DNA from: Candidatus Iainarchaeum sp.
GTDB taxonomy: Archaea > Iainarchaeota > Iainarchaeia > Iainarchaeales > GCA-2688035
Direction of reading: 5' to 3'
Assembly: GCA_026396975.1 (NCBI GenBank)
Contig: JAPLVT010000024.1
Location: forward strand, 1 to 32,294
DNA: 32,294 nt
The number at the start of each line of letters is the position of its first letter. Position 1 is the first letter of the stretch. The position numbers were made by a program, and so were the translations under genes. The notes under the pieces are model-generated. The model made no database searches, was not told where the DNA came from, and was given only the letters and a program-made list of their open reading frames with translations. Positions 177 through 23,622 of this stretch are shown here, in pieces.

Positions 177-1085
177 ATGGCGATAAGGCTGGTTGTTTTG
201 GGGACAAGCTGCAGCAATCCGACTGTTGAAAGAAACCTCACAGCCGTGGCACTGCAGTTTGACGGAAACTGGTTTTTGTTCGACTGCCCCGAGGGAACGC
301 AGCGGCAGATGATGAAATCAGGCGTGAGCTATATGCGGGTGCACAGCATTTTCCTCTCGCACTTTCACGCAGACCATGTGCTCGGGCTGCCTGGGCTGGT
401 TGCGACAATGGCAATGCATGGGAGAGACGCGCCGCTGAATGTTTTCGGCCCAAAGGGAGTGAAAGAAGAGATAAAAAAAGTGCTTGGCTTGGCGCTGATG
501 AAATGCAACTTTGAGGTGCGCGTGAAAGAATGCGGAAGGGGAAAAGCGCTTGAAGGCGAAAAATTCACTGTAAGCGGAGTTCCGCTCAAGCACGGAGTGC
601 CATGCATCGGCTGGGTCTTCAAGGAAAAGGACAAGGAGGGAACTTTCCAGCGCGAAAAAGCCCTCAAGCTTGGAATACCGGAGGGGCCGCTCTGGAGCAG
701 GCTGCAGCACGGAAAAGAAGTTACAGCCAACGGCAAGGCATTCAAGCCCGAGCAGGTGATGGACTACAGCAAGGGGCGCGAGGGAAAAAAAATCAGCATT
801 GTTCTGGACACGCTGCCGAGCGACAGCTATTTCGACGCCATAGAAAAAAGCGACGTGCTTGTGCACGAAGCGGCTTTTTTGGACAAGCACATTTCGCGGG
901 CGAAGGAAACAAAGCACTCAACAGCGAAGCAGGCGGCATGGGTAGCGGCGCAAACAAAGGCGAAAAAGCTCATTTTGGTGCACATCTCCCCGCGCTACAA
1001 GAAAAACTCCGAAGTTGAGAACGAGGCGCGCCAGGAATTCGGCGAGGTTTCTGTCCCGGAAGATCTCGCTGTTTTTGACGTTTGA
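177..1085 (+). CDS. rnz: Ribonuclease Z (tRNA 3' endonuclease, metallo-beta-lactamase fold)
   Basis: 302 aa. N-terminus MAIRLVVLGTSCSNPTVERNLTAVAL..FLFDCPEGTQRQ with the HxHxDH motif (LSHFHADHVLGLPGL), and C-terminal LILVHISPRY. This is the typical short-form RNase Z layout. Confidence 0.9.
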   Translation: MAIRLVVLGTSCSNPTVERNLTAVALQFDGNWFLFDCPEGTQRQMMKSGVSYMRVHSIFLSHFHADHVLGLPGLVATMAMHGRDAPLNVFGPKGVKEEIKKVLGLALMKCNFEVRVKECGRGKALEGEKFTVSGVPLKHGVPCIGWVFKEKDKEGTFQREKALKLGIPEGPLWSRLQHGKEVTANGKAFKPEQVMDYSKGREGKKISIVLDTLPSDSYFDAIEKSDVLVHEAAFLDKHISRAKETKHSTAKQAAWVAAQTKAKKLILVHISPRYKKNSEVENEARQEFGEVSVPEDLAVFDV

Positions 1086-1111
1086 AGGCAGCGCGCGCCG
1101 CTGGTGTTTTG

Positions 1112-2299
1112 ATGGTTTCAAGGGAACAGCTGCAAGTTTTCGCGCTTCCGAACATTCTTTTTTTCGGGCAAATCTGCGCCTTCCAGCTGTTCTTCATGTT
1201 CATCCCGATCCACCTGCGCGACATCGGGCTGGCGAACTGGCAGATCGGCGTCCTGATGGGGCTTTTGCCCGTGACAGCGATCCTTCTCTCTGTGCCGTTC
1301 GGGATTTTCAGCGACAGGATTGTGCCGAAGCACATGGTGGTTGTTTCGCTCCTGTTAATGGCTGTTTTCACCGCGCTCCTCGGCAGCACTGCCGCATTTT
1401 CGGCGCTGCTCGTGGTGTTCCTTATTGGGGGAACCGCACGGAACCTTTTCTTTGTCAGCCTTTACTCGCTATACTACAAAACAATCGGCGAAAAAAACAA
1501 AAGCAGGAAGATAGCGCTCGCGGAAATAAGCAGGGTGGTCGCATACGGAATAGGCCCTTTTGCGGGAGGGGCGCTGCTCGCAACGCTGGCTTTCAGCGCG
1601 CTGTTCGGAATAGCATTCCTCGCGGTGATTCCGCTGATACTTCTTGCGTTGATGCTGAAGAGAACGAAAGGCGCTTTCACTCCGCTCTCGGAGTACAAAA
1701 AGGATTTCAAGAACAGCCGGTTCCTGCTTGTTTTCGCGGCATACTTTTTCCTCGCGCTTCACTTCGGTGCGGAAGACACTGTGCACGCGCTTTTCCTTGA
1801 GCATACCGTGGGGCTCTCTTTCCAGGAGATTGGATTTGTATTCCTTTGGATAGCGGCTGTCCTTGTCTGCTTTAATATCATCGGGGCTTTCGCGCTTGGC
1901 AGGGGGCGCGGAATAAAATGGATTCTTCTCGCGGGGCTTGCGGCTTCGGCAATCGGGAACATGATTTACCTCTGGAGCTTTTCCCTGCCGATGGTGCTGC
2001 TCAGCAGGCTTGTGCATGAGGGCGGCGACGCTGCCGCGATTCTCTCAATAATGGTTGTGACGCCGAGCCTCACCCGCACTGAAAGGGTCGGCGGCGCGTT
2101 AGGCACAATAACACTGGCTTCATACTCTGGCTCGCTTATAGGCGCGCTGATATCCGGCTTTTCCGCCGACGCGTACGGATACGCGATGCCATTTGCAATA
2201 ACCGGCGCCGCACTGCTGGTGCCGCTGGTTATCTTCGCCTCGATGTTCGCGGCGCGCGGCAAAAAGAATAAAAGCGGCGGGGGAATAATGTTAGCATGA
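1112..2299 (+). CDS. MFS-type transporter
   Basis: Polytopic membrane protein of about 395 aa with roughly 12 hydrophobic segments. It has an MFS motif-A-like loop (GIFSDRIVPKH). The ORF track starts at TTG 1082, overlapping the rnz stop; ATG 1112 (MVSREQ...) is more likely, but the start is uncertain. Confidence 0.75.
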   Translation: MVSREQLQVFALPNILFFGQICAFQLFFMFIPIHLRDIGLANWQIGVLMGLLPVTAILLSVPFGIFSDRIVPKHMVVVSLLLMAVFTALLGSTAAFSALLVVFLIGGTARNLFFVSLYSLYYKTIGEKNKSRKIALAEISRVVAYGIGPFAGGALLATLAFSALFGIAFLAVIPLILLALMLKRTKGAFTPLSEYKKDFKNSRFLLVFAAYFFLALHFGAEDTVHALFLEHTVGLSFQEIGFVFLWIAAVLVCFNIIGAFALGRGRGIKWILLAGLAASAIGNMIYLWSFSLPMVLLSRLVHEGGDAAAILSIMVVTPSLTRTERVGGALGTITLASYSGSLIGALISGFSADAYGYAMPFAITGAALLVPLVIFASMFAARGKKNKSGGGIMLA

Positions 2300-2348
2300 A
2301 GGAAATTGCTTCAGCCTGGCAGGAAATGCCCACAACAGAGGGGCCGGC

Positions 2349-3074
2349 ATGAAGGCAGTTGTTCTTGCAGCAGGCCAGGGCGTTCGGATGCTTCCGCTGA
2401 CGCAGGATAAGCCGAAGGCGCTTGTTGAGCTGAACGGCAAGTCGCTGCTCTGGCACGTGCTGAGTTCCCTTTCGAGGGCGCGAGTTAGCGAAACAATCAT
2501 TGTGGTTGGATTCAGGGGGGAAATGGTGAAGGAAAAATTCGGTTCGCGTTTCGGAAAAATGAAGTTACGGTATGTTGTGCAGAACGTTGCGATGGGAACA
2601 GGCCACGCTCTCTTCCAGGCGCGCAAAATCGCGAAAGGCAGGTTTCTTGTGGGCTACTGTGATGCCATTGTGGAGCCTGGGCTATGGAAAAAGCTTTCCG
2701 GCGTGAAGGGAAAGGACGCTGTCGCGGCGCTGCGCAGGGAAGAGCATCCCGAGCGCTTCGGCGTCGCGCTTGTGAGCGGAAAAAAGCTTGAGGCGATTGT
2801 TGAAAAGCCCGCTGAGAACCTGAAAAGCAATTTGGTGAACGTCGGCGCTTATTTGTTCAGCGAAAAAATCTTTCCCGCGCTCGAAAAAATAAAGATGAGC
2901 AGCAGGAACGAGTTCGAGCTCACGGACGCGATTAACGCGCTTGCGGCAGCCGGAAAAGCAGGCTTCGTATTGTACGAAGGAAAGTGCCTTGACATCGGGA
3001 CAATTGAGGACTTGAAAGCGGCCGCCGAAAGCGGGAAAAATAGGCTGCGCGATGCAGAAAAAGAAAAAAATTAA
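2349..3074 (+). CDS. Sugar-1-phosphate nucleotidylyltransferase (NTP_transferase family)
   Basis: N-terminal signature MKAVVLAAGQGVRMLPLTQDKPKALVEL (GxGxRxxPxT..KP). 241 aa single GT-A-like domain. Substrate not assignable from sequence. Confidence 0.85.
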   Translation: MKAVVLAAGQGVRMLPLTQDKPKALVELNGKSLLWHVLSSLSRARVSETIIVVGFRGEMVKEKFGSRFGKMKLRYVVQNVAMGTGHALFQARKIAKGRFLVGYCDAIVEPGLWKKLSGVKGKDAVAALRREEHPERFGVALVSGKKLEAIVEKPAENLKSNLVNVGAYLFSEKIFPALEKIKMSSRNEFELTDAINALAAAGKAGFVLYEGKCLDIGTIEDLKAAAESGKNRLRDAEKEKN

Positions 3075-3090
3075 TAAACTAGTTCGCTCC

Positions 3091-3097
3091 TTTTTTT
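3091..3097 (+). terminator. Oligo-T tract after the nucleotidyltransferase gene
   Basis: T7 run 17 nt after the stop at 3074. Archaeal RNA polymerase terminates at oligo-T tracts. Confidence 0.4.
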
Positions 3098-3101
3098 GCC
3101 T

Positions 3102-3293
3102 ATGAAATTCTTCCAGGGTTTCTTCGCACTGCTCGCGATCGCGGGAGCGATTTTCTACGCGGCGTTCAACTTCATTGCAGAGGGGATAGCGCACGCGGCA
3201 GTGATTGCGGCAGGCGGCTTTGTGCTTGCGCTCGACATTTTCGCTTTCGCTGTATGGTTCGTGAACTGGAGGTACTACCCTGAAAAGAGATAG
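3102..3293 (+). CDS. Small membrane protein (two TM helices)
   Basis: MKFFQGFFALLAIAGAIFYAAF...FVLALDIFAFAVWFVNW. ATG at 3102 lies inside the track ORF that starts at TTG 3096. A T8 tract follows at 3315-3322. Confidence 0.5.
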   Translation: MKFFQGFFALLAIAGAIFYAAFNFIAEGIAHAAVIAAGGFVLALDIFAFAVWFVNWRYYPEKR

Positions 3294-3320
3294 AAACAAT
3301 CTGCTGGGGCCTGCTTTTTT

Positions 3321-4010
3321 TTACTTAAAGCTGAAGCTCTGCCCGGGCTTGAGGATAATAGGCTTTGTTTTCAAAATGCTTTTTTCTATTTTCTGCTTGA
3401 ACTCTTTCGGGTCCTGCTCTATCATCTTGAAAGTGTTGTAGTGCATCGGCACCGCGAAGCGCGGCTTCATTGTTTTAACGGCTTTCACTGCGTCGACGAC
3501 ATCCATTGTGTAGGTGCCGCCGATCGGAAGAAGAGCGACATCCGGGCTCAGGGTCGCGAAATCGTCTATGAGATCTGTGTCGCCGGCGTGGAAAACGCTT
3601 CTGCCGCCGTACGAAACCAGAAAGCCGAGCGGATAGAATGCCTGCGGGTGGTGGACGGCGATCGCCTTTACGCCAATGCCCCTGAGGTTGATGCTGTCGT
3701 TCATTCCAACCGCGTGCAGCTGGTGCTTGCCGAGGTTGAATTCCTGCAGCACCGTTTGCGATGCTACAACGCAGCTGTTGTTTTTCTTCGCGATTTTTTC
3801 TACCAAATCCTTGTCGAAGTGGTCGAAGTGCTCGTGGGAAATCAAAATAAGGTCGATGTTTTTGAAATCGCTCTCTTTCGCAGCGGTTGGCACAAGGCGC
3901 TTGAAGGATGACTCCTTGCAGCTATTCGAAACATACGGGTCGAAAAGAACAGCCTTGTCGCCGAAGGCCAGCTTAAAGAAACTATGGCCGAAGTACTGAA
4001 CAGAAGGCAC
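3321..4010 (-). CDS. Metallo-beta-lactamase fold metal-dependent hydrolase (UPF0173-like)
   Basis: 229 aa with a GTG start. VQYFGHSFFKL..VLFDPY, HxHxDH motif (ISHEHFDHFD), HAGDT, and VALLPIGGTYTMD..AVPMHYNTF. This matches the conserved small archaeal/bacterial MBL hydrolase family. Confidence 0.85.
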   Translation of the reverse strand: MPSVQYFGHSFFKLAFGDKAVLFDPYVSNSCKESSFKRLVPTAAKESDFKNIDLILISHEHFDHFDKDLVEKIAKKNNSCVVASQTVLQEFNLGKHQLHAVGMNDSINLRGIGVKAIAVHHPQAFYPLGFLVSYGGRSVFHAGDTDLIDDFATLSPDVALLPIGGTYTMDVVDAVKAVKTMKPRFAVPMHYNTFKMIEQDPKEFKQKIEKSILKTKPIILKPGQSFSFK

Positions 4011-4065
4011 CCCAAACTACCCATATTAACTTTTCCAGCGTTTTGTTTAAATAACCTACACCCCC

Positions 4066-4222
4066 CAGCGGAAAAAAAATCACGCTCAGGCAAGATTGAA
4101 ATCACGCCGCCTTGCAAACCTGTTGGTTTGCGAGGCCTCGTGAACCCGCTGGTTCACAAGGTCGCTACTGCTAAACACAAAAGTTCGGGAAAAAGACCAT
4201 AATAAACGCCTGCGGCGGCGTT
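4066..4222. ncRNA. Copy 1 of a three-copy structured intergenic element (candidate sRNA, minus strand favoured, or a hairpin-ended MITE/PATE-like element)
   Basis: Conserved block CAGCGGAAAAAAAATCACGCTCAGGCAAGATTGAAATC. Closing stem ACGCCGCC (4104-4111) pairs with GGCGGCGT (4214-4221). Extra perfect hairpins at 4114-4131 and 4140-4157. The minus-strand reading ends in GAGCGTGATTTTTTTT. Confidence 0.45.
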
Positions 4223-4243
4223 TAGAAAAAAATAATAAATCTG

Positions 4244-5038
4244 ATGTGGTTATTATATGGGGTTGTTTTGAGAAAATTTTTGTTGATTGCGGGGCTTCTG
4301 CTGCTTTTGTGCGCCACGGCTTCAGCGCAGTTTTACCTGATTGACAGGCACGCGATTGAGATAACTGTTGACAGGCAGGGAAACGCTGTTGTCAGCGACA
4401 AGTTCTTCATCCAGTTCCAGAATCAGCAGCAGTTGGACGATTTCAGGGCAAAGGTTACGCAGATTGGCGTCAACATTGACGCCTGGCTGGCTTACGATGA
4501 CAGGATAAAGCCCGCAATTGGGGCAGAGAGCGACATAACTGTCAGCAAGGTTTCCTTTGTGGAAGAGCCGAGCGCTTACCTTGAGATACGCTATTCCTTG
4601 AACGATACGCTGATGGAGAAGAAAAGCGAGACAAGCAGGGTAATAGGCTATGGCATCAAGGAAAAGTTTTTCAGCGGATTTTTGGAGGGCAGCCTTTGGG
4701 TGATTCCCGCCGGAACAACAATAACAGTTATCCTTCCCGGCGGCGTGGAAGTGCTGCAGCCGGTTGAACCCGACGCCGCAACCAGCGGCAACACAATCAT
4801 GTGGAGCGGCTACAAGTACAGCAACAAGCTGACCTTGAACTACAACGAATTCAAGCAGATCGCTTCTTTCGACCTTGACAAGGCGTTACAGCAGGTAATG
4901 GAAAGCGACTTGTTCTGGGTAATTGTAGCGGTTCTGGCTGTTAGCGCGCTGCTTGGCCTCTGGAAGCGCAGGGCAATAAGCGAAAAAATAGAGCGCTACA
5001 TTGTCGAGCACAGCGACCTGCGGTCAGAAGAAGAGTAA
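4244..5038 (+). CDS. Secreted or membrane-anchored protein of unknown function
   Basis: N-terminal signal-like segment (LLIAGLLLLLCATASAQ) and a C-terminal TM anchor (LFWVIVAVLAVSALLGLWKRR). No recognisable domain. Confidence 0.7.
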   Translation: MWLLYGVVLRKFLLIAGLLLLLCATASAQFYLIDRHAIEITVDRQGNAVVSDKFFIQFQNQQQLDDFRAKVTQIGVNIDAWLAYDDRIKPAIGAESDITVSKVSFVEEPSAYLEIRYSLNDTLMEKKSETSRVIGYGIKEKFFSGFLEGSLWVIPAGTTITVILPGGVEVLQPVEPDAATSGNTIMWSGYKYSNKLTLNYNEFKQIASFDLDKALQQVMESDLFWVIVAVLAVSALLGLWKRRAISEKIERYIVEHSDLRSEEE

Positions 5039-5049
5039 TCCGGCTGTTC

Positions 5050-5056
5050 TTTTTTT
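5050..5056 (+). terminator. Oligo-T tract after 4244..5038
   Basis: T7 run 12 nt after the TAA stop. Confidence 0.4.
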
Positions 5057-5080
5057 GGATTTCCGCGTAAGAACAAAAGC

Positions 5081-5185
5081 CAGCGGAAAACAAATCACGC
5101 TCAGGGAAGATTGAGACCACGCTGGCGCCATTGCGACCCAAAAGCGCTTAGGGATAAGCCGATAAGAAGTGCCTGCGCCAGCGTT
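5081..5185. ncRNA. Copy 2 of the structured intergenic element
   Basis: CAGCGGAAAACAAATCACGCTCAGGGAAGATTGAGACC. 10-bp stem ACGCTGGCGC (5119-5128) pairs with GCGCCAGCGT (5175-5184). The minus-strand reading ends in GAGCGTGATTTGTTTT. Confidence 0.45.
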
Positions 5186-5254
5186 GCATTGGTGGGAGAC
5201 GCGAGCCCGCGGCAGAGGGTTCTTTGCGGAGCCCGCGCCCCTAACAATCCCTTA

Positions 5255-5340
5255 TTTTGCAATAAGCGCGCGAAACAAAAATTCTGTGTTCCAAGACATG
5301 CGGAAAACCTTTCACTTTGCAATAAGCGTGTAGACCAAAA
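5255..5340. repeat. Direct repeat TTTGCAATAAGCG(C/T)G...AAAA x2, period about 59 bp
   Basis: 5255-5280 ttttgcaataagcgcgcgaaacaaaa versus 5314-5340 actttgcaataagcgtgtagaccaaaa. The second copy covers the stop region of the 56-aa ORF (..LIAK*). The first copy would also read ..LIAK* on the minus strand. Confidence 0.6.
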
Positions 5341-5482
5341 ACGCGAGGACGACAAAGCCAAGCGGGCTGAACAGCACGCCGAACTGCGGCGTTATGCCGA
5401 GGAAAAGCGCGCCTGCGAACAAGAGCAGCATTATTGCCGCTGAGTAAACAACGGAATCGAAGATCGCCCTGAACCTACCCAT
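5312..5482 (-). CDS. Small two-TM membrane protein (56 aa), absent from the ORF track
   Basis: Hand translation: MGRFRAIFDSVVYSAAIMLLLFAGALFLGITPQFGVLFSPLGFVVLAFLVYTLIAK*. GAGG lies upstream (GGTGTGAGGAAAAATG). It has the same architecture and position as the 63-aa ORF 5912..6103 in the neighbouring paralogous cassette. Confidence 0.5.
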   Translation of the reverse strand: MGRFRAIFDSVVYSAAIMLLLFAGALFLGITPQFGVLFSPLGFVVLAFLVYTLIAK

Positions 5483-5545
5483 TTTTCCTCACACCCCAGA
5501 AAATGCTTTCCATGCAGGAACTCCCCTTGAATTCAAACATTTTTC

Positions 5546-5905
5546 TTACCCCAAGAAACTGAAATAAAACGTGTTGATGAAGCTGAGCGCCATCAGCAGG
5601 AAAGTTACTATTATCGCGAAGCGCTTCTGCACCCACCCGCCTTCCGGGAAGAACAGACCGACGAACAACTGCACGGGCAACGCGATTATGAACGGCACCA
5701 GAATCCAGCCGGCGAGATTAAGGATATCGGAGAAAGCGTAAAGCAGTCCGACTATTGCAAGGAAGTGCCAGACCGGCTTGTGGCCTTTTTCTGCGATTAT
5801 CACAAAGGCAGCGAAAGCGAAAAGCCAGTGCAGGTTGTTCATTATAAGCCCTGCTATCCAATTAAGGTCGAAGGACAACAGATGCGAAAGGAATTCAACC
5901 AGCAT
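5546..5905 (-). CDS. Four-TM membrane protein, paralog of 6100..6465
   Basis: MLVEFLSHLLSFDLNWIAGLIMNNLHWLFAFAAF aligns with MFFEFAYHVLSFDFVWIASLIMGNLHWLFAFAAC of the upstream gene. The start lies 6 nt after the stop of 5912..6103. Confidence 0.75.
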   Translation of the reverse strand: MLVEFLSHLLSFDLNWIAGLIMNNLHWLFAFAAFVIIAEKGHKPVWHFLAIVGLLYAFSDILNLAGWILVPFIIALPVQLFVGLFFPEGGWVQKRFAIIVTFLLMALSFINTFYFSFLG

Positions 5906-21015: not shown

Positions 21016-21054
21016 AAACAAGCGCACGCGCCGGCTCTTTTAACAAAACGCGAA

Positions 21055-21083
21055 AAGCGAAAACAAAAAGCGGCTTTTCGCTT
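21055..21083. promoter_or_regulatory. 9-bp inverted repeat upstream of the plus-strand pilin-like operon
   Basis: AAGCGAAAA (21055-21063) and TTTTCGCTT (21075-21083), within a GCGAAAA-rich spacer. AAAATTTAAAC follows about 25 nt before the start at 21136. Confidence 0.3.
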
Positions 21084-21135
21084 AACAACGAAAAAAGCGA
21101 AAAAATTTAAACATCCGCGCGCCAGCGCTTCTTTG

Positions 21136-21669
21136 ATGAACAGCAAGGGCATTTTTTGCATCGCACTACTGCTCGCGGCAGCAGGCATCGAACTGGGGAT
21201 GCGGCAAAGTTCCGCACTTGCAAACGCGAAAACCGCAGAAGCGAAAACAATCGCGCTCGAAGCGGAACAACTGAACATGGCGCGCACGGCAATAGAAGAG
21301 AACACAGACGCCATTATCCTGCAAACACTGCGCGAGCAGCTGCAGCAAAACAAAACACCGGAAGAAATAAAGCGGGCTGTAAATAGCAGGCTCGCGGCGC
21401 TTTTCACTGCAACAGAAAAAAATTACACGCGCGGAATCACAGTGGAATTCGCCATAGGAAGCGGCGGCAACGCAGACACTGCTTTCCTCAACGAAAACAG
21501 CAGCATCATTGTTTTGCCCGCTGGCGGCAGAACAATAGCAGGGGAATACTCCTTCACGGGCGGACTGCTGCGCAACAAGGCGGTGCAGGCGGAAATCACC
21601 GGCAGCAGAACAAGGCAATTGTTCAGGATTCCCGCAGGCTACACCATCAGGGCAACAGTGGTGAAATGA
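21136..21669 (+). CDS. Type IV pilin-like protein (class III signal peptide candidate)
   Basis: The N-terminus MNSKG|IFCIALLLAAAGIEL has a basic residue plus Gly, then a hydrophobic helix. First gene of a four-gene overlapping operon. Confidence 0.55.
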   Translation: MNSKGIFCIALLLAAAGIELGMRQSSALANAKTAEAKTIALEAEQLNMARTAIEENTDAIILQTLREQLQQNKTPEEIKRAVNSRLAALFTATEKNYTRGITVEFAIGSGGNADTAFLNENSSIIVLPAGGRTIAGEYSFTGGLLRNKAVQAEITGSRTRQLFRIPAGYTIRATVVK

Positions 21670-22049
21670 ACGGAAAAAGGGAAAAAAGGTTTTTTGGGGC
21701 AGCGCAGGCGCAGCTCGAAGCGCTCATATGCATCGCTTTTTTCATTGCAATGCTCGGCGCGTTGCTGCATTCCCTTGGCCAGGCAAAGCAGGCGGCGGAC
21801 GCCGCAGGTGAAGCGCTGCAGGCGAAAAGCAACGCGCTGCTCTGCTGCGCTGCAGTGGACAGCACCTACAGCAACAGCGCAGCCGGATTATTGGACGAAG
21901 AGCTGCATTGCACCGCGGAAAGCGGCATGATGCTCAGCAGCGCTGGCGAAAAAACAAAAGAGGCAGACTGCATTGCCCCCGGCATCAAAACTGCGCAGAA
22001 CAGCGGCAAAACAAGGATAGAGGTAACTCTGAATGAGCACTACAGATAG
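21666..22049 (+). CDS. Type IV pilin-like protein (class III signal peptide candidate)
   Basis: KRFFGAA|QAQLEALICIAFFIAMLGALL resembles the QxSxExxxL archaeal class III motif. ATGA overlap with the upstream gene. Confidence 0.6.
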   Translation: MNGKREKRFFGAAQAQLEALICIAFFIAMLGALLHSLGQAKQAADAAGEALQAKSNALLCCAAVDSTYSNSAAGLLDEELHCTAESGMMLSSAGEKTKEADCIAPGIKTAQNSGKTRIEVTLNEHYR

Positions 22050-22572
22050 CGGGGGAAGCCGCACGGGGGGATTTGTGTTCTGCTGTGACCAAGCTATAGC
22101 AAACAAGCGCAGGGGCGCCCGCAAGGGATTTATTTTCTCCCTTGACCTCGCAATCGCGCTAATCACAGTGTTGCTGATGCTGAACCTCGCGCTGCTGCAC
22201 TTCAACGAGGAGAAAGAATCACTGCTGGCGGGCGCAAAAAAATCCGAACTGCAAAAAAACGCGCTGCTGCTGGCGGACTCTCTGGTGAAAAACAACAACG
22301 CGGAAAACCCGCTGCTTGGAGCGGCTTTCTTTGACAACGAAAAGCACAGGGTGCTAAGCAATGTTGTGCAAAAGGAACTGCTGCGGGAAGCACAGGCGGA
22401 TTCTTTCGGAGGCTGGCACGCCCAGGCACTTTCACTAAAAACAAAAAACGGCGCGGAAGAAACATTTTTCGCGGAGGAGAAACAGGCCGGCAAGGACTGC
22501 GTGGCTGTCGAGCGGTTTGTAATCGCGGGAACGGAAAAAGCGCTGCTGCGGGTGGCTGCCTGTGAGGAGTAA
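22033..22572 (+). CDS. Type IV pilin-like protein (class III signal peptide candidate)
   Basis: RRGARKG|FIFSLDLAIALITVLLML is the typical archaeal prepilin/archaellin-type cleavage context. An alternative GTG start at 22075, preceded by GGGGGG, would give a 17-aa leader. Confidence 0.65.
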   Translation: MSTTDSGGSRTGGFVFCCDQAIANKRRGARKGFIFSLDLAIALITVLLMLNLALLHFNEEKESLLAGAKKSELQKNALLLADSLVKNNNAENPLLGAAFFDNEKHRVLSNVVQKELLREAQADSFGGWHAQALSLKTKNGAEETFFAEEKQAGKDCVAVERFVIAGTEKALLRVAACEE

Positions 22573-22912
22573 CGGGCTGTATTTCACTGCCGATGCGCTG
22601 CTTTCGCTGCTGCTTCTATCCGCACTGCTGGCGCTCCCGGCACAGCAGCAGGAAGCTGACTGGAGCCAATTGCTCGCGCTGCAGAAGGAAAACGACCTGC
22701 TAAAAATATGGGCTGCCGAAGGAATGCCTTTCAACGAAGTTGAAATCATTAGCGACGCGCAATTTGTTTTCCCTGGCAGCGGAATGAAAATAACGCTGGA
22801 TGGAAAAGAAATTCCGCTCGGGGCGGAAACAGGCAGCGCGATTGCGTCCGAAATAATTTTTTTTGACAGCGGAATGCAAAAGCACACCATTCAGCTTGCG
22901 GTATACAGGTAA
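22562..22912 (+). CDS. Type IV pilin-like protein (class III signal peptide candidate)
   Basis: (GTG)RSNG|LYFTADALLSLLLLSALLAL. Overlaps the upstream gene by 11 nt. Confidence 0.65.
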   Translation: MRSNGLYFTADALLSLLLLSALLALPAQQQEADWSQLLALQKENDLLKIWAAEGMPFNEVEIISDAQFVFPGSGMKITLDGKEIPLGAETGSAIASEIIFFDSGMQKHTIQLAVYR

Positions 22913-23304
22913 ACAAGCCCGGCCTTCTTTTCCACGACAAAAACCTTCCTGCCGGAGAAAACAATTTTTGGAAAATCAACGGAATTGGGAAGCAATACGC
23001 CCAGGGTTTTTTCTCCGCCAGCCCCGTTTTCCAATGCAACAAAAAAATTTTCCCCCTCAGCCCGGACAGTCCACTTGCCAAAAGGCTGCGCCTCAACAGA
23101 GGCGATGCTGCCATCGGCCAGAAAACGCGCTTCGTCAACAGCGTGCTGCAGGCGGCCTGCAAAAACAGCCGCGTTCTCCCTGTCAAGCGCGAGCAGCGCG
23201 TCGCTGTGGACGCGCTGCACTGTCGGCAGCAGAACTGCGACGACTGCAAAGACAGCCGCAAGCAGCAGCAGGAACTCCAGGCTCAGCTGGCCGCCAGAAC
23301 GCAT
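22891..23304 (-). CDS. Type IV pilin-like protein with a canonical class III signal peptide
   Basis: MRSGG|QLSLEFLLLLAAVFAVVAVLL matches QxSxExxxL exactly. 137 aa. The 3' end overlaps the convergent gene by 22 nt. Confidence 0.75.
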   Translation of the reverse strand: MRSGGQLSLEFLLLLAAVFAVVAVLLPTVQRVHSDALLALDRENAAVFAGRLQHAVDEARFLADGSIASVEAQPFGKWTVRAEGENFFVALENGAGGEKTLGVLLPNSVDFPKIVFSGRKVFVVEKKAGLVYLYTAS

Positions 23305-23315
23305 AATGAAACAAC

Positions 23316-23495
23316 TCAGATGTCCTCTATTTCTTGGAAAATTTTCTTGCTTTTCTCTTCAATGACCTTTGTTCCCTCGCTGCTGGTCTGCTGCAGCTGC
23401 GAAACAAGCAGCAGCACTAGCGCAACCACTGCCGCGAGAACTATTATCAGTTCCACTGAAATCTGCGCCTTCGCGTCCATGAAAAAATTTTTCAT
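23316..23495 (-). CDS. Small (59 aa) major-pilin-like protein with a class III signal peptide
   Basis: MKNFFMDAKA|QISVELIIVLAAVVALVLLLV. GGAGGT lies 8 nt upstream of ATG 23495. The track ORF (to 23894) carries an implausible 133-aa N-terminal extension. Confidence 0.75.
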   Translation of the reverse strand: MKNFFMDAKAQISVELIIVLAAVVALVLLLVSQLQQTSSEGTKVIEEKSKKIFQEIEDI

Positions 23496-23622
23496 GAAAA
23501 AAACCTCCATCGCATAAGAAATTTGCTGCAAAGAGAAGCAATAAAAAGCGCGCGAAAAATTCGGCGCAAGACGAACTCTGCGCAAGTTTGTTTTTAATTG
23601 TTTTCTAGGAAAAGTTCTTTGG

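Follow-up and report, generated by a model that had tools for sequence, protein, structure and literature searches.

The 32,294-nucleotide (nt) contig JAPLVT010000024.1 of Candidatus Iainarchaeum sp. (assembly GCA_026396975.1), hereafter the window and numbered C124 among the contigs of its own genome, comes from a member of the Iainarchaeia (Diapherotrites), uncultured small-genome DPANN archaea whose lifestyle is poorly known. It carries six adjacent small open reading frames (ORFs), here named A to F, each of which encodes a protein with a short, usually basic leader that ends in glycine or alanine at position -1 and is followed by a hydrophobic N-terminal segment of about 20 residues (Table 1). 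A model that had seen the sequence alone had proposed that these are type IV pilin-like proteins encoded by two convergent operons (the original prediction), and all six ORFs with their class III signal peptide contexts were recovered from the ORF table and the sequence. Genes A to D, on the plus strand, converge on E and F, on the minus strand; successive genes overlap by 4 nt (A/B), 17 nt (B/C) and 11 nt (C/D), and D and E overlap tail to tail by 22 nt, so that the predicted overlaps were reproduced from the coordinates. F leads the F-E pair, with 11 nt between its stop and the start of E, and the GGAGGT ribosome-binding site claimed for it was located. The mature F protein is predicted to begin at KA/QISVELIIVLAAVVALVLLLV (the slash marks the predicted cleavage site) and continues into an amphipathic tail, with no globular domain.

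The six genes form a real, fixed, single-copy array that extends across the class. Gene order and orientation were identical in every related locus inspected, i.e., in ~30 distinct loci including those of 20 sampled genomes. Contigs with the nearest A homologs (47-50% identity) displayed a small ORF, U, followed by A, B, C and D converging on E and F, with an M50 protease and Cdc48 after them and ArsR- and AsnC-type regulators ahead of the module. Scans of genome and metagenome collections added 19 further locus records, several of them repeat copies of contigs already in the set, and all six families were found in the same order and orientation wherever the contig was long enough, even with some A proteins just 29-33% identical. 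A-B-C-D converging on E-F was likewise recovered in 20/20 excised regions, from genomes of ~18 families, with B or D falling under the hidden Markov model threshold in a few distant loci (L050-L054). In a whole-genome search, family A was detected in 151 of the 215 genomes of the class, 47 of the 58 high-quality ones and 61 of the 79 genera, at one copy per genome except for two genomes with a second, partial match. Since family A had just 277 representatives, every one of them full length, in an exhaustive profile search of 1.84 billion proteins, it is both compact and lineage-restricted; source names of homologs were "Candidatus Iainarchaeum", "Candidatus Diapherotrites" and, for some, "Micrarchaeota". 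The gene overlaps are themselves conserved, the 4-nt A/B overlap in 13/25 locus records, the 17-nt B/C overlap in 14/25 and the D/E tail overlap in most. With the array conserved gene for gene, and the signal peptide positions being the best-conserved columns of each family, the block therefore reflects more than chance.

Table 1 Features of the pilin-like module, its neighbourhood and two platform-gene loci elsewhere in the genome (aa, amino acids; a slash marks the predicted cleavage site)
Feature	Contig	Coordinates	Strand	Remarks
A	C124	21136-21669	+	177 aa; MNSKG/IFCIALLL; pilin-like, from ORF table and sequence
B	C124	21666-22049	+	127 aa; FFGAA/QAQLEA; pilin-like; relatives read G/QLQLE
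C	C124	22033-22572	+	179 aa; ARKG/FIFSLD; pilin-like
D	C124	22562-22912	+	116 aa; GTG start; RSNG/LYFTAD; pilin-like
E	C124	22891-23304	-	137 aa; RSGG/QLSLEF; predicted pilin
F	C124	23316-23495	-	59-aa prepilin, 49 aa mature; MKNFFMDAKA/QISVEL
Shine-Dalgarno of F, GGAGGT	C124	23504-23509	-	8 nt upstream of ATG; read from sequence
ArsR-type regulator	C124	19037-19636	+	Membrane-anchored winged helix-turn-helix protein; Pfam HTH_5, 9.8e-11; two transmembrane segments
Lrp/AsnC-type regulator	C124	19565-20602	-	Tandem, two modules; Pfam AsnC_trans_reg and HTH_24
U	C124	20746-21015	+	89 aa; two hydrophobic segments, charged tail; co-directional with A-D
Imperfect palindrome TTCGYTKAACAACG	C124	21077-21093	+	Candidate operator of the A-D operon
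M50 membrane metalloprotease	C124	23623-24231	+	Site-2-protease family; Pfam Peptidase_M50, 1.8e-12; divergent from F
Cdc48	C124	24239-27895	-	1218 aa, vs 724 aa in syntenic locus L011
Secretion ATPase	C96	1394-2929		ATPase-TadC-TadC operon
TadC-like platform protein	C96	2995-3912		Same operon
TadC-like platform protein	C96	3920-4924		Same operon
TadC-like platform protein	C165	267-1448		
TadC-like platform protein	C165	1452-2390		Followed by four pilins, A24 peptidase and two more pilins

We evaluated the conservation of the signal peptide positions in alignments of 28-36 sequences per family. Glycine or alanine occupied -1 in at least 90% of the members of all six families (A, 36/36, with glycine in 34/36; D, 28/29; E, 30/30; F, 30/31), and the -1 glycine of C, present in 31/31 sequences, was the sole invariant N-terminal residue of that family. 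In the families whose leader could be aligned (A and C-F), lysine or arginine was found at -2 in 63-87% of members (31/36 for A). Glutamate at +5 was present in 27/28 B sequences and in all E (30/30) and F (31/31) sequences, with Gln +1 and Ser +3 just as invariant in the latter two families, while aspartate or glutamate was found at +6 in all C (31/31) and D (29/29) sequences. Directly after the cleavage site, F (QISVELIIVL) and E (QLSLEFLLLL) of the window display the Q-x-S-x-E-x-x-x-L motif noted in the original prediction, but its restriction to these two proteins did not stand in full, as B has Q-x-x-x-E too (QAQLE). Profile comparisons with hhalign linked the N-terminus of B to those of E (96.5%) and F (91.5%), and that of C to that of D (88%), with A standing apart. 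These links run via the N-terminal helix only, and in the same comparisons the C-terminal parts or heads of the six families were not detectable paralogs.

Outside the signal peptide, B has invariant Cys60, Cys82 and Tyr126 and a nearly invariant His125 (a C-terminal HY motif), C has a Cys156/Cys177 pair in which Cys177 is invariant and Cys156 nearly so, and D has invariant Asp45 and Trp50; the cysteine pairs of B and C thus fit extracytoplasmic or exported domains. Protein C of the window has 24 leader residues more than most relatives (22045-22116), and since GGFVFCCDQAIA in this leader is similar to KGFIFSLDLAIA, the true cleavage-site region just after it, the extra segment looks like a degenerate tandem duplication. 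A real start further downstream was rejected, as relatives share the MSTT start and the 17-nt overlap with B, and the 24 residues are thus best viewed as a leader insertion. At this leader position, the C protein of another locus (L056) carries an insertion of unrelated sequence. A home-made FlaFind-like pattern, which matched 284 of the 10,464 stop-to-stop ORFs of the genome, most of them in spurious frames, was dropped as a genome-wide null or census because it was too loose.

Judging from the profile matches of their homologs, F and E appear to belong to PF04021 (class III signal peptide / UPF0333). This family was matched by 28/30 F members (E-value cut-off 0.1, best 6.5e-8) and 18/30 E members (cut-off 0.01, best 1.8e-6), and family-wide Pfam scans returned it for F and E only. 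F homologs were found in at least 559 clusters, labelled "UPF0333 family", "class III signal peptide-containing protein" or similarly, and MMP1685, the major pilin of Methanococcus, is also a UPF0333 protein. For A and E, AlphaFold2 models were made from the family alignments. The model of A (predicted local distance difference test, pLDDT, 94.5) consists of a helix at 3-70, a second helix at 75-96 and six strands, and that of E (pLDDT 92.4) of a helix at 9-59 followed by seven strands; as modelled, both thus follow the pilin "lollipop" plan of a long N-terminal alpha-1 helix and a beta-sheet domain. Overall, a pilin-like reading of all six proteins is supported at the level at which sequence and models can test it.

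Within the set, F differs markedly from the other five members. Over the 22 loci having all six genes, mature F proteins were 64% identical across the class (82% over the first 25 residues) vs 28-33% for A-E, and this far stronger conservation makes F the probable major pilin, in support of the major-pilin-like character first proposed for it. Further, its pattern (a 49-residue mature protein, a strong Shine-Dalgarno sequence of its own and the first position in the F-E pair) matches that of EpdE and Flp. By sequence, F is thus probably a UPF0333/EpdE-like major pilin.

The absence of assembly machinery from the window, as originally reported, was confirmed: no A24 prepilin peptidase, T2SSE secretion ATPase or T2SSF platform gene was detected on C124, all genome matches being on other contigs. 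The original prediction was staked on the genome encoding a peptidase and an ATPase, and both were found there. The assembly (0.88 Mb in 168 contigs, 72% complete) includes two A24 peptidases (C165 and C115), three T2SSE ATPases (C55, C86 and C96), two pairs of TadC-like genes (C165 and C96) and 4-5 T2SSF matches, with the machinery genes spread over contigs C165, C115, C55, C86, C96 and C59. On C165, positions 267-5549 represent a type IV pilus locus that lacks the ATPase only, on a contig that starts at the first platform gene; two of four pilins in this locus are 54-58 aa long. A second operon at the end of this contig (9693-10947) encodes at least three pilin-like proteins, one with a C-like N-terminus (NRG/FVFSMDAALAL). 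Because a search for archaellins in this 72%-complete genome was negative, these machines are better viewed as pili than as archaella.

Related genomes provided additional information on which machine may serve the module. In one of them (G181), a single strand reads TadC-TadC-short pilin-A24-pilin-pilin-membrane protein-A-B-C-D, converging on F-E, with an ATPase just beyond; the machinery part is collinear with C165, and its A24 peptidase is closest to the C165 copy. In each of six other relatives, of which five are well assembled, the module was found 12-44 kb from the orthologous A24 or ATPase locus, with distances to A24 and ATPase, respectively, of 17 and 12 kb in G087, 17 and 21 kb in G183, 24 and 29 kb in G154, 29 and 25 kb in G018, and 44 and 36 kb in G023, and an ATPase at 23 kb in G065. 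As these genomes are 1.0-1.5 Mb in size, this linkage is tighter than random placement. The module and one A24/ATPase locus (2-44 kb apart across G181 and the six others) may represent a loosened supercluster, and the C165-type machine is the likely partner of the module. Beyond these loci, more than 20 further ORFs of the genome have convincing class III-type N-termini (GQ..E, KG/IF...), including one of 693 aa; examples are found on C13 (823-4265), C70 (358, 869), C71 (1392), C72 (600), C83, C122 (5844) and C166. This pilin-like repertoire is large for a genome of ~1.2 Mb. Related genomes displayed 4-8 secretion ATPase matches each.

Taken together, we consider it quite probable that these six genes encode the pilins of an Epd-like ("system 1") archaeal type IV pilus. 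Several observations weigh against this assignment. None of the 36 A members has an acidic residue at +5 or +6, and the acidic residue of C and D is at +6, not at the canonical +5; Glu5 is often missing from archaeal pilins and archaellins, however, so these departures do not exclude membership among the pilins. For B homologs in loci L038, L040, L042, L043 and L044, the best start leaves only 2-4 residues before the conserved glutamate and no glycine or alanine at -1, i.e., either these starts are mis-called or the proteins may not be processed. The PF04021 scores of the window proteins (F, 17.0 bits; E, 17.8 bits) are under the 23.7-bit gathering cut-off, these weak matches were the only ones that Pfam and NCBIfam scans returned for the window set, with none for A-D, and neither library assigns A, C or D to a pilin family, with no Pfam match among 31 C members. 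Profile searches of the PDB with families A and E gave no match, and a Foldseek search of the two models against the PDB gave none at E <= 0.001, with best TM-scores of ~0.3 to unrelated proteins. The original impression that the globular parts resemble nothing known thus holds for the two that were compared, A and E; since pilin heads are very diverse, this weakens the case for homology of the heads and not for the mechanism. Finally, linkage within 45 kb could represent inherited synteny instead of functional coupling, and as the genome has several machines, along with no fewer than 20 other pilin-like proteins, it is linkage only that designates the cognate machine.

Some of these observations would also be compatible with a composite arrangement in which only F and E are pilins, while A-D are uncleaved single-pass membrane proteins that form an accessory complex of the pilus machine within the membrane. 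Proteins of a comparable kind are the PilN/PilO and GspL/M alignment proteins and the archaellum stator proteins FlaF/FlaG, in which an N-terminal transmembrane helix likewise extends as a long helix, with a small beta domain. That A-D match no pilin family, that A is a profile outlier without the acidic residue, and that its model, with an unusually long 68-residue helix and a second helix ahead of the sheet, has no Foldseek match among pilins would all agree with such a complex, yet Foldseek likewise returned no match to PilN/O, GspM or FlaF structures. The N-termini point the other way: the sole near-invariant feature of A, C and D in this region is a K/R-G pair 3-8 residues from the start, a placement that a prepilin peptidase requires and that a plain signal anchor does not need, and by profile the N-termini of C and D are related to that of B, and that of B to those of E and F. 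Four or five co-transcribed minor pilins are, in addition, the rule in type IV pili (T4P) and type II secretion systems (T2SS). We therefore regard an accessory complex as rather unlikely.

Alternatively, the processed pilins could form a short pseudopilus that serves in secretion or in the uptake of nucleic acids, similar to T2SS or Com systems, instead of a long adhesive filament. One source labels an F homolog "competence protein ComGC", weak ComGE-type matches were seen, and one tiny major subunit with five minor ones mirrors both ComGC-GG and GspG-K; DPANN archaea also rely on imported nucleotides. However, these ComG labels and matches stay below threshold and stem from the hydrophobic helix only, and the search for a ComEC-type channel was negative in the genome, at 72% completeness. 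The closest characterised relatives of F, the EpdE/UPF0333 proteins, form true adhesive surface pili (PMC4858521; PMC13705601), and we thus consider a pseudopilus unlikely. The chance that the N-terminal likeness is a coincidence among unrelated small membrane proteins or spurious ORFs is negligible, since, even if such N-termini are not rare by pattern alone (the 284/10,464 ORFs mentioned above), conservation of all six proteins in a fixed order throughout the class refutes it, the models of A and E are highly confident, and the motif positions are the most conserved columns.

For the pilin set that we favour, the mechanism would be that of other type IV filaments. The N-terminal hydrophobic segment would insert all six proteins into the membrane, and an A24 prepilin peptidase encoded elsewhere would cleave each of them after the -1 glycine or alanine. 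A secretion ATPase and a TadC-like platform pair, also encoded elsewhere, would then extract the subunits and polymerise them. F would be the major subunit, with its hydrophobic alpha-1 helix and short amphipathic tail, while E, presumably co-transcribed with F, and A-D, from a translationally coupled operon, would be low-abundance minor pilins. With bacterial GspH-K and FimU-PilVWX as a guide, the five minor subunits probably serve to prime assembly and occupy the tip, and A, as the sole member without an acid at +5/+6, might be the capping subunit. We infer that all six proteins are cleaved and incorporated into a filament, and that they divide into one major and five minor subunits. A role in attachment to a host or a surface is a matter of speculation.

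Next, we considered the genes and sequences around the module. The membrane-anchored ArsR-type protein is a probable regulator linked to the module: about half of the sampled genomes have a homolog at this locus, and in loci L038, L041, L045, L052, L054 and L015-17 it is found directly upstream of A. Homologs of the Lrp/AsnC-type regulator adjoin the module in L011, L012, L048, L049, L053 and L056. U, which has neither a Pfam match nor a class III signal, is retained ahead of A in close relatives. The ArsR-AsnC-U cassette of G181 is found on the F-E side of the module and not on the A-D side (L048 1060-3146); its position upstream of F-E there suggests that the cassette travels with the module. 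On the other flank, the protease next to F is an M50 family member by its Pfam match and not a prepilin peptidase, in line with the original assignment. M50 homologs were found in 18/20 sampled loci, nearly always with Cdc48 and usually directly beside F, which makes the protease a conserved neighbour whose functional tie to the pilins would be speculative.

The spacer between U and A includes a candidate regulatory site. The imperfect palindrome TTCGYTKAACAACG lies ~13 nt upstream of a TATA-like TTTAAA (21106-21111), itself ~25 nt before the ATG of A, and this spacing suggests a leaderless transcript with an operator beside the promoter. The columns of TTCGYTKAACAACG are the only conserved part of the U-A spacer in close relatives, and 13 same-family locus records (several of them same-contig duplicates) each have exactly one copy of the box, 55-80 nt ahead of A. 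A search of the window for a second copy, e.g., upstream of F, gave none beyond this single match. The spacer (21047-21103) further includes three 9-nt inverted repeats that overlap one another and several copies of GCGAAAA, with 21077-21093 the only part conserved in relatives. One could imagine that the pilin module is the output of a regulated-intramembrane-proteolysis circuit, in which the M50 protease would release the tethered ArsR-type regulator, in several lineages the first gene of the A-D operon, as pilins or surface contact alter the state of the membrane, and the freed regulator would act on the palindromic box upstream of A. We regard this as very doubtful. To our knowledge, contact-sensing control of this sort by regulated proteolysis has not been described in archaea, and such a circuit would, if true, let a DPANN class switch its host-attachment organelle in response to contact.

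The module is of a known kind, probably an Epd-like archaeal pilin set, and what is specific to it are the lineage-specific minor-pilin families A-D and the head of E, the fixed, class-wide and single-copy nature of the module in which these unnamed families are found, and its steady association with a membrane-tethered regulator and an M50 protease. Found in ~70-80% of the genomes of the class, with an almost invariant 49-residue F, it is a strong candidate for the main surface filament of these archaea. F provides a target for antibodies, proteomics and helical reconstruction by cryo-electron microscopy; A-E represent a predicted minor-pilin or tip set whose modelled heads (A and E) have no solved relative, and the candidate operator and regulator form a pair open to expression studies. 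The census of archaeal pilins thereby gains four or five unnamed families missed by current family models, while the general picture of archaeal type IV filament function is unchanged by this module.

The separation of the pilin genes from the motor is not unusual. Stand-alone pilin genes distant from the motor are documented in Methanococcus and many other archaea, and the M. maripaludis major pilin MMP1685 (arCOG06620) is itself encoded away from the main locus (PMC4858521). For DPANN archaea, a recent survey (PMC13705601, PLoS Genet 2026) describes ATPase and platform genes located together, with pilin genes scattered. The survey counts ~1,990 DPANN genomes with system-1 (Epd-like) pilins, gives a pair of platform genes and a major pilin lacking a globular domain as the marks of system 1, and cautions that its own models may miss pilins (PMC13705601). 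Platform genes adjacent to the ATPase, as in system 1, are found on C96, and C165 also has a TadC pair. Within the text read, that account does not describe a fixed six-gene module, class-wide single-copy conservation or the families A-D (PMC13705601).

The Epd pilus of Methanococcus maripaludis is composed of the major pilin EpdE/MMP1685 and the minor pilins MMP0233, MMP0236 and MMP0237 (PMC4858521; PMC13705601). The Iainarchaeia set resembles it in its very short F with a QxSxE-type N-terminus and no globular domain, in its several minor pilins, in the distance of the major pilin gene from the ATPase/platform locus, and in having a dedicated A24 peptidase and, for each machine, a pair of platform genes. 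Unlike in Epd, A-D and the head of E have no sequence relation to named pilin families that Pfam or NCBIfam scans could detect, F travels with five minor pilins as a fixed six-gene module, and this module is flanked by a membrane-tethered ArsR-type regulator and an M50 protease.

With four or five coupled minor pilins and one major pilin, the set is also reminiscent of the minor-pilin complexes of T2SS and T4aP (GspH-I-J-K, FimU-PilV-W-X and ComGD-GG). GspK, which is found at the tip of the T2SS pseudopilus, has no conserved acidic residue, and the same is true of A. This likeness is organisational only, given that the PDB searches with A and E gave no similarity in sequence or fold.

A final comparison is with the bacterial Tad/Flp system. 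The two differ in lineage, the present set being archaeal, and in having an archaeal-type A24 peptidase vs TadV; in addition, matches to Flp1_like (PF16982) are far below threshold, with E = 0.056 and 13.3 bits for F of the window (cut-off, 33.5) and weak matches in 7/30 F members (best E, 0.0013), and the scans gave no match to the TadE Pfam family. Like the Tad/Flp system, however, the Iainarchaeia set has a major subunit of ~50 residues when mature, made of a hydrophobic helix and a short tail, larger proteins that share the N-terminal motif of the major pilin (the pseudopilins TadE and TadF in Tad systems), and a platform divided between two TadB/TadC-like genes. Archaeal Epd-like systems are considered to be ancestral to Tad systems (Denise et al. 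2019, as cited in PMC13705601).

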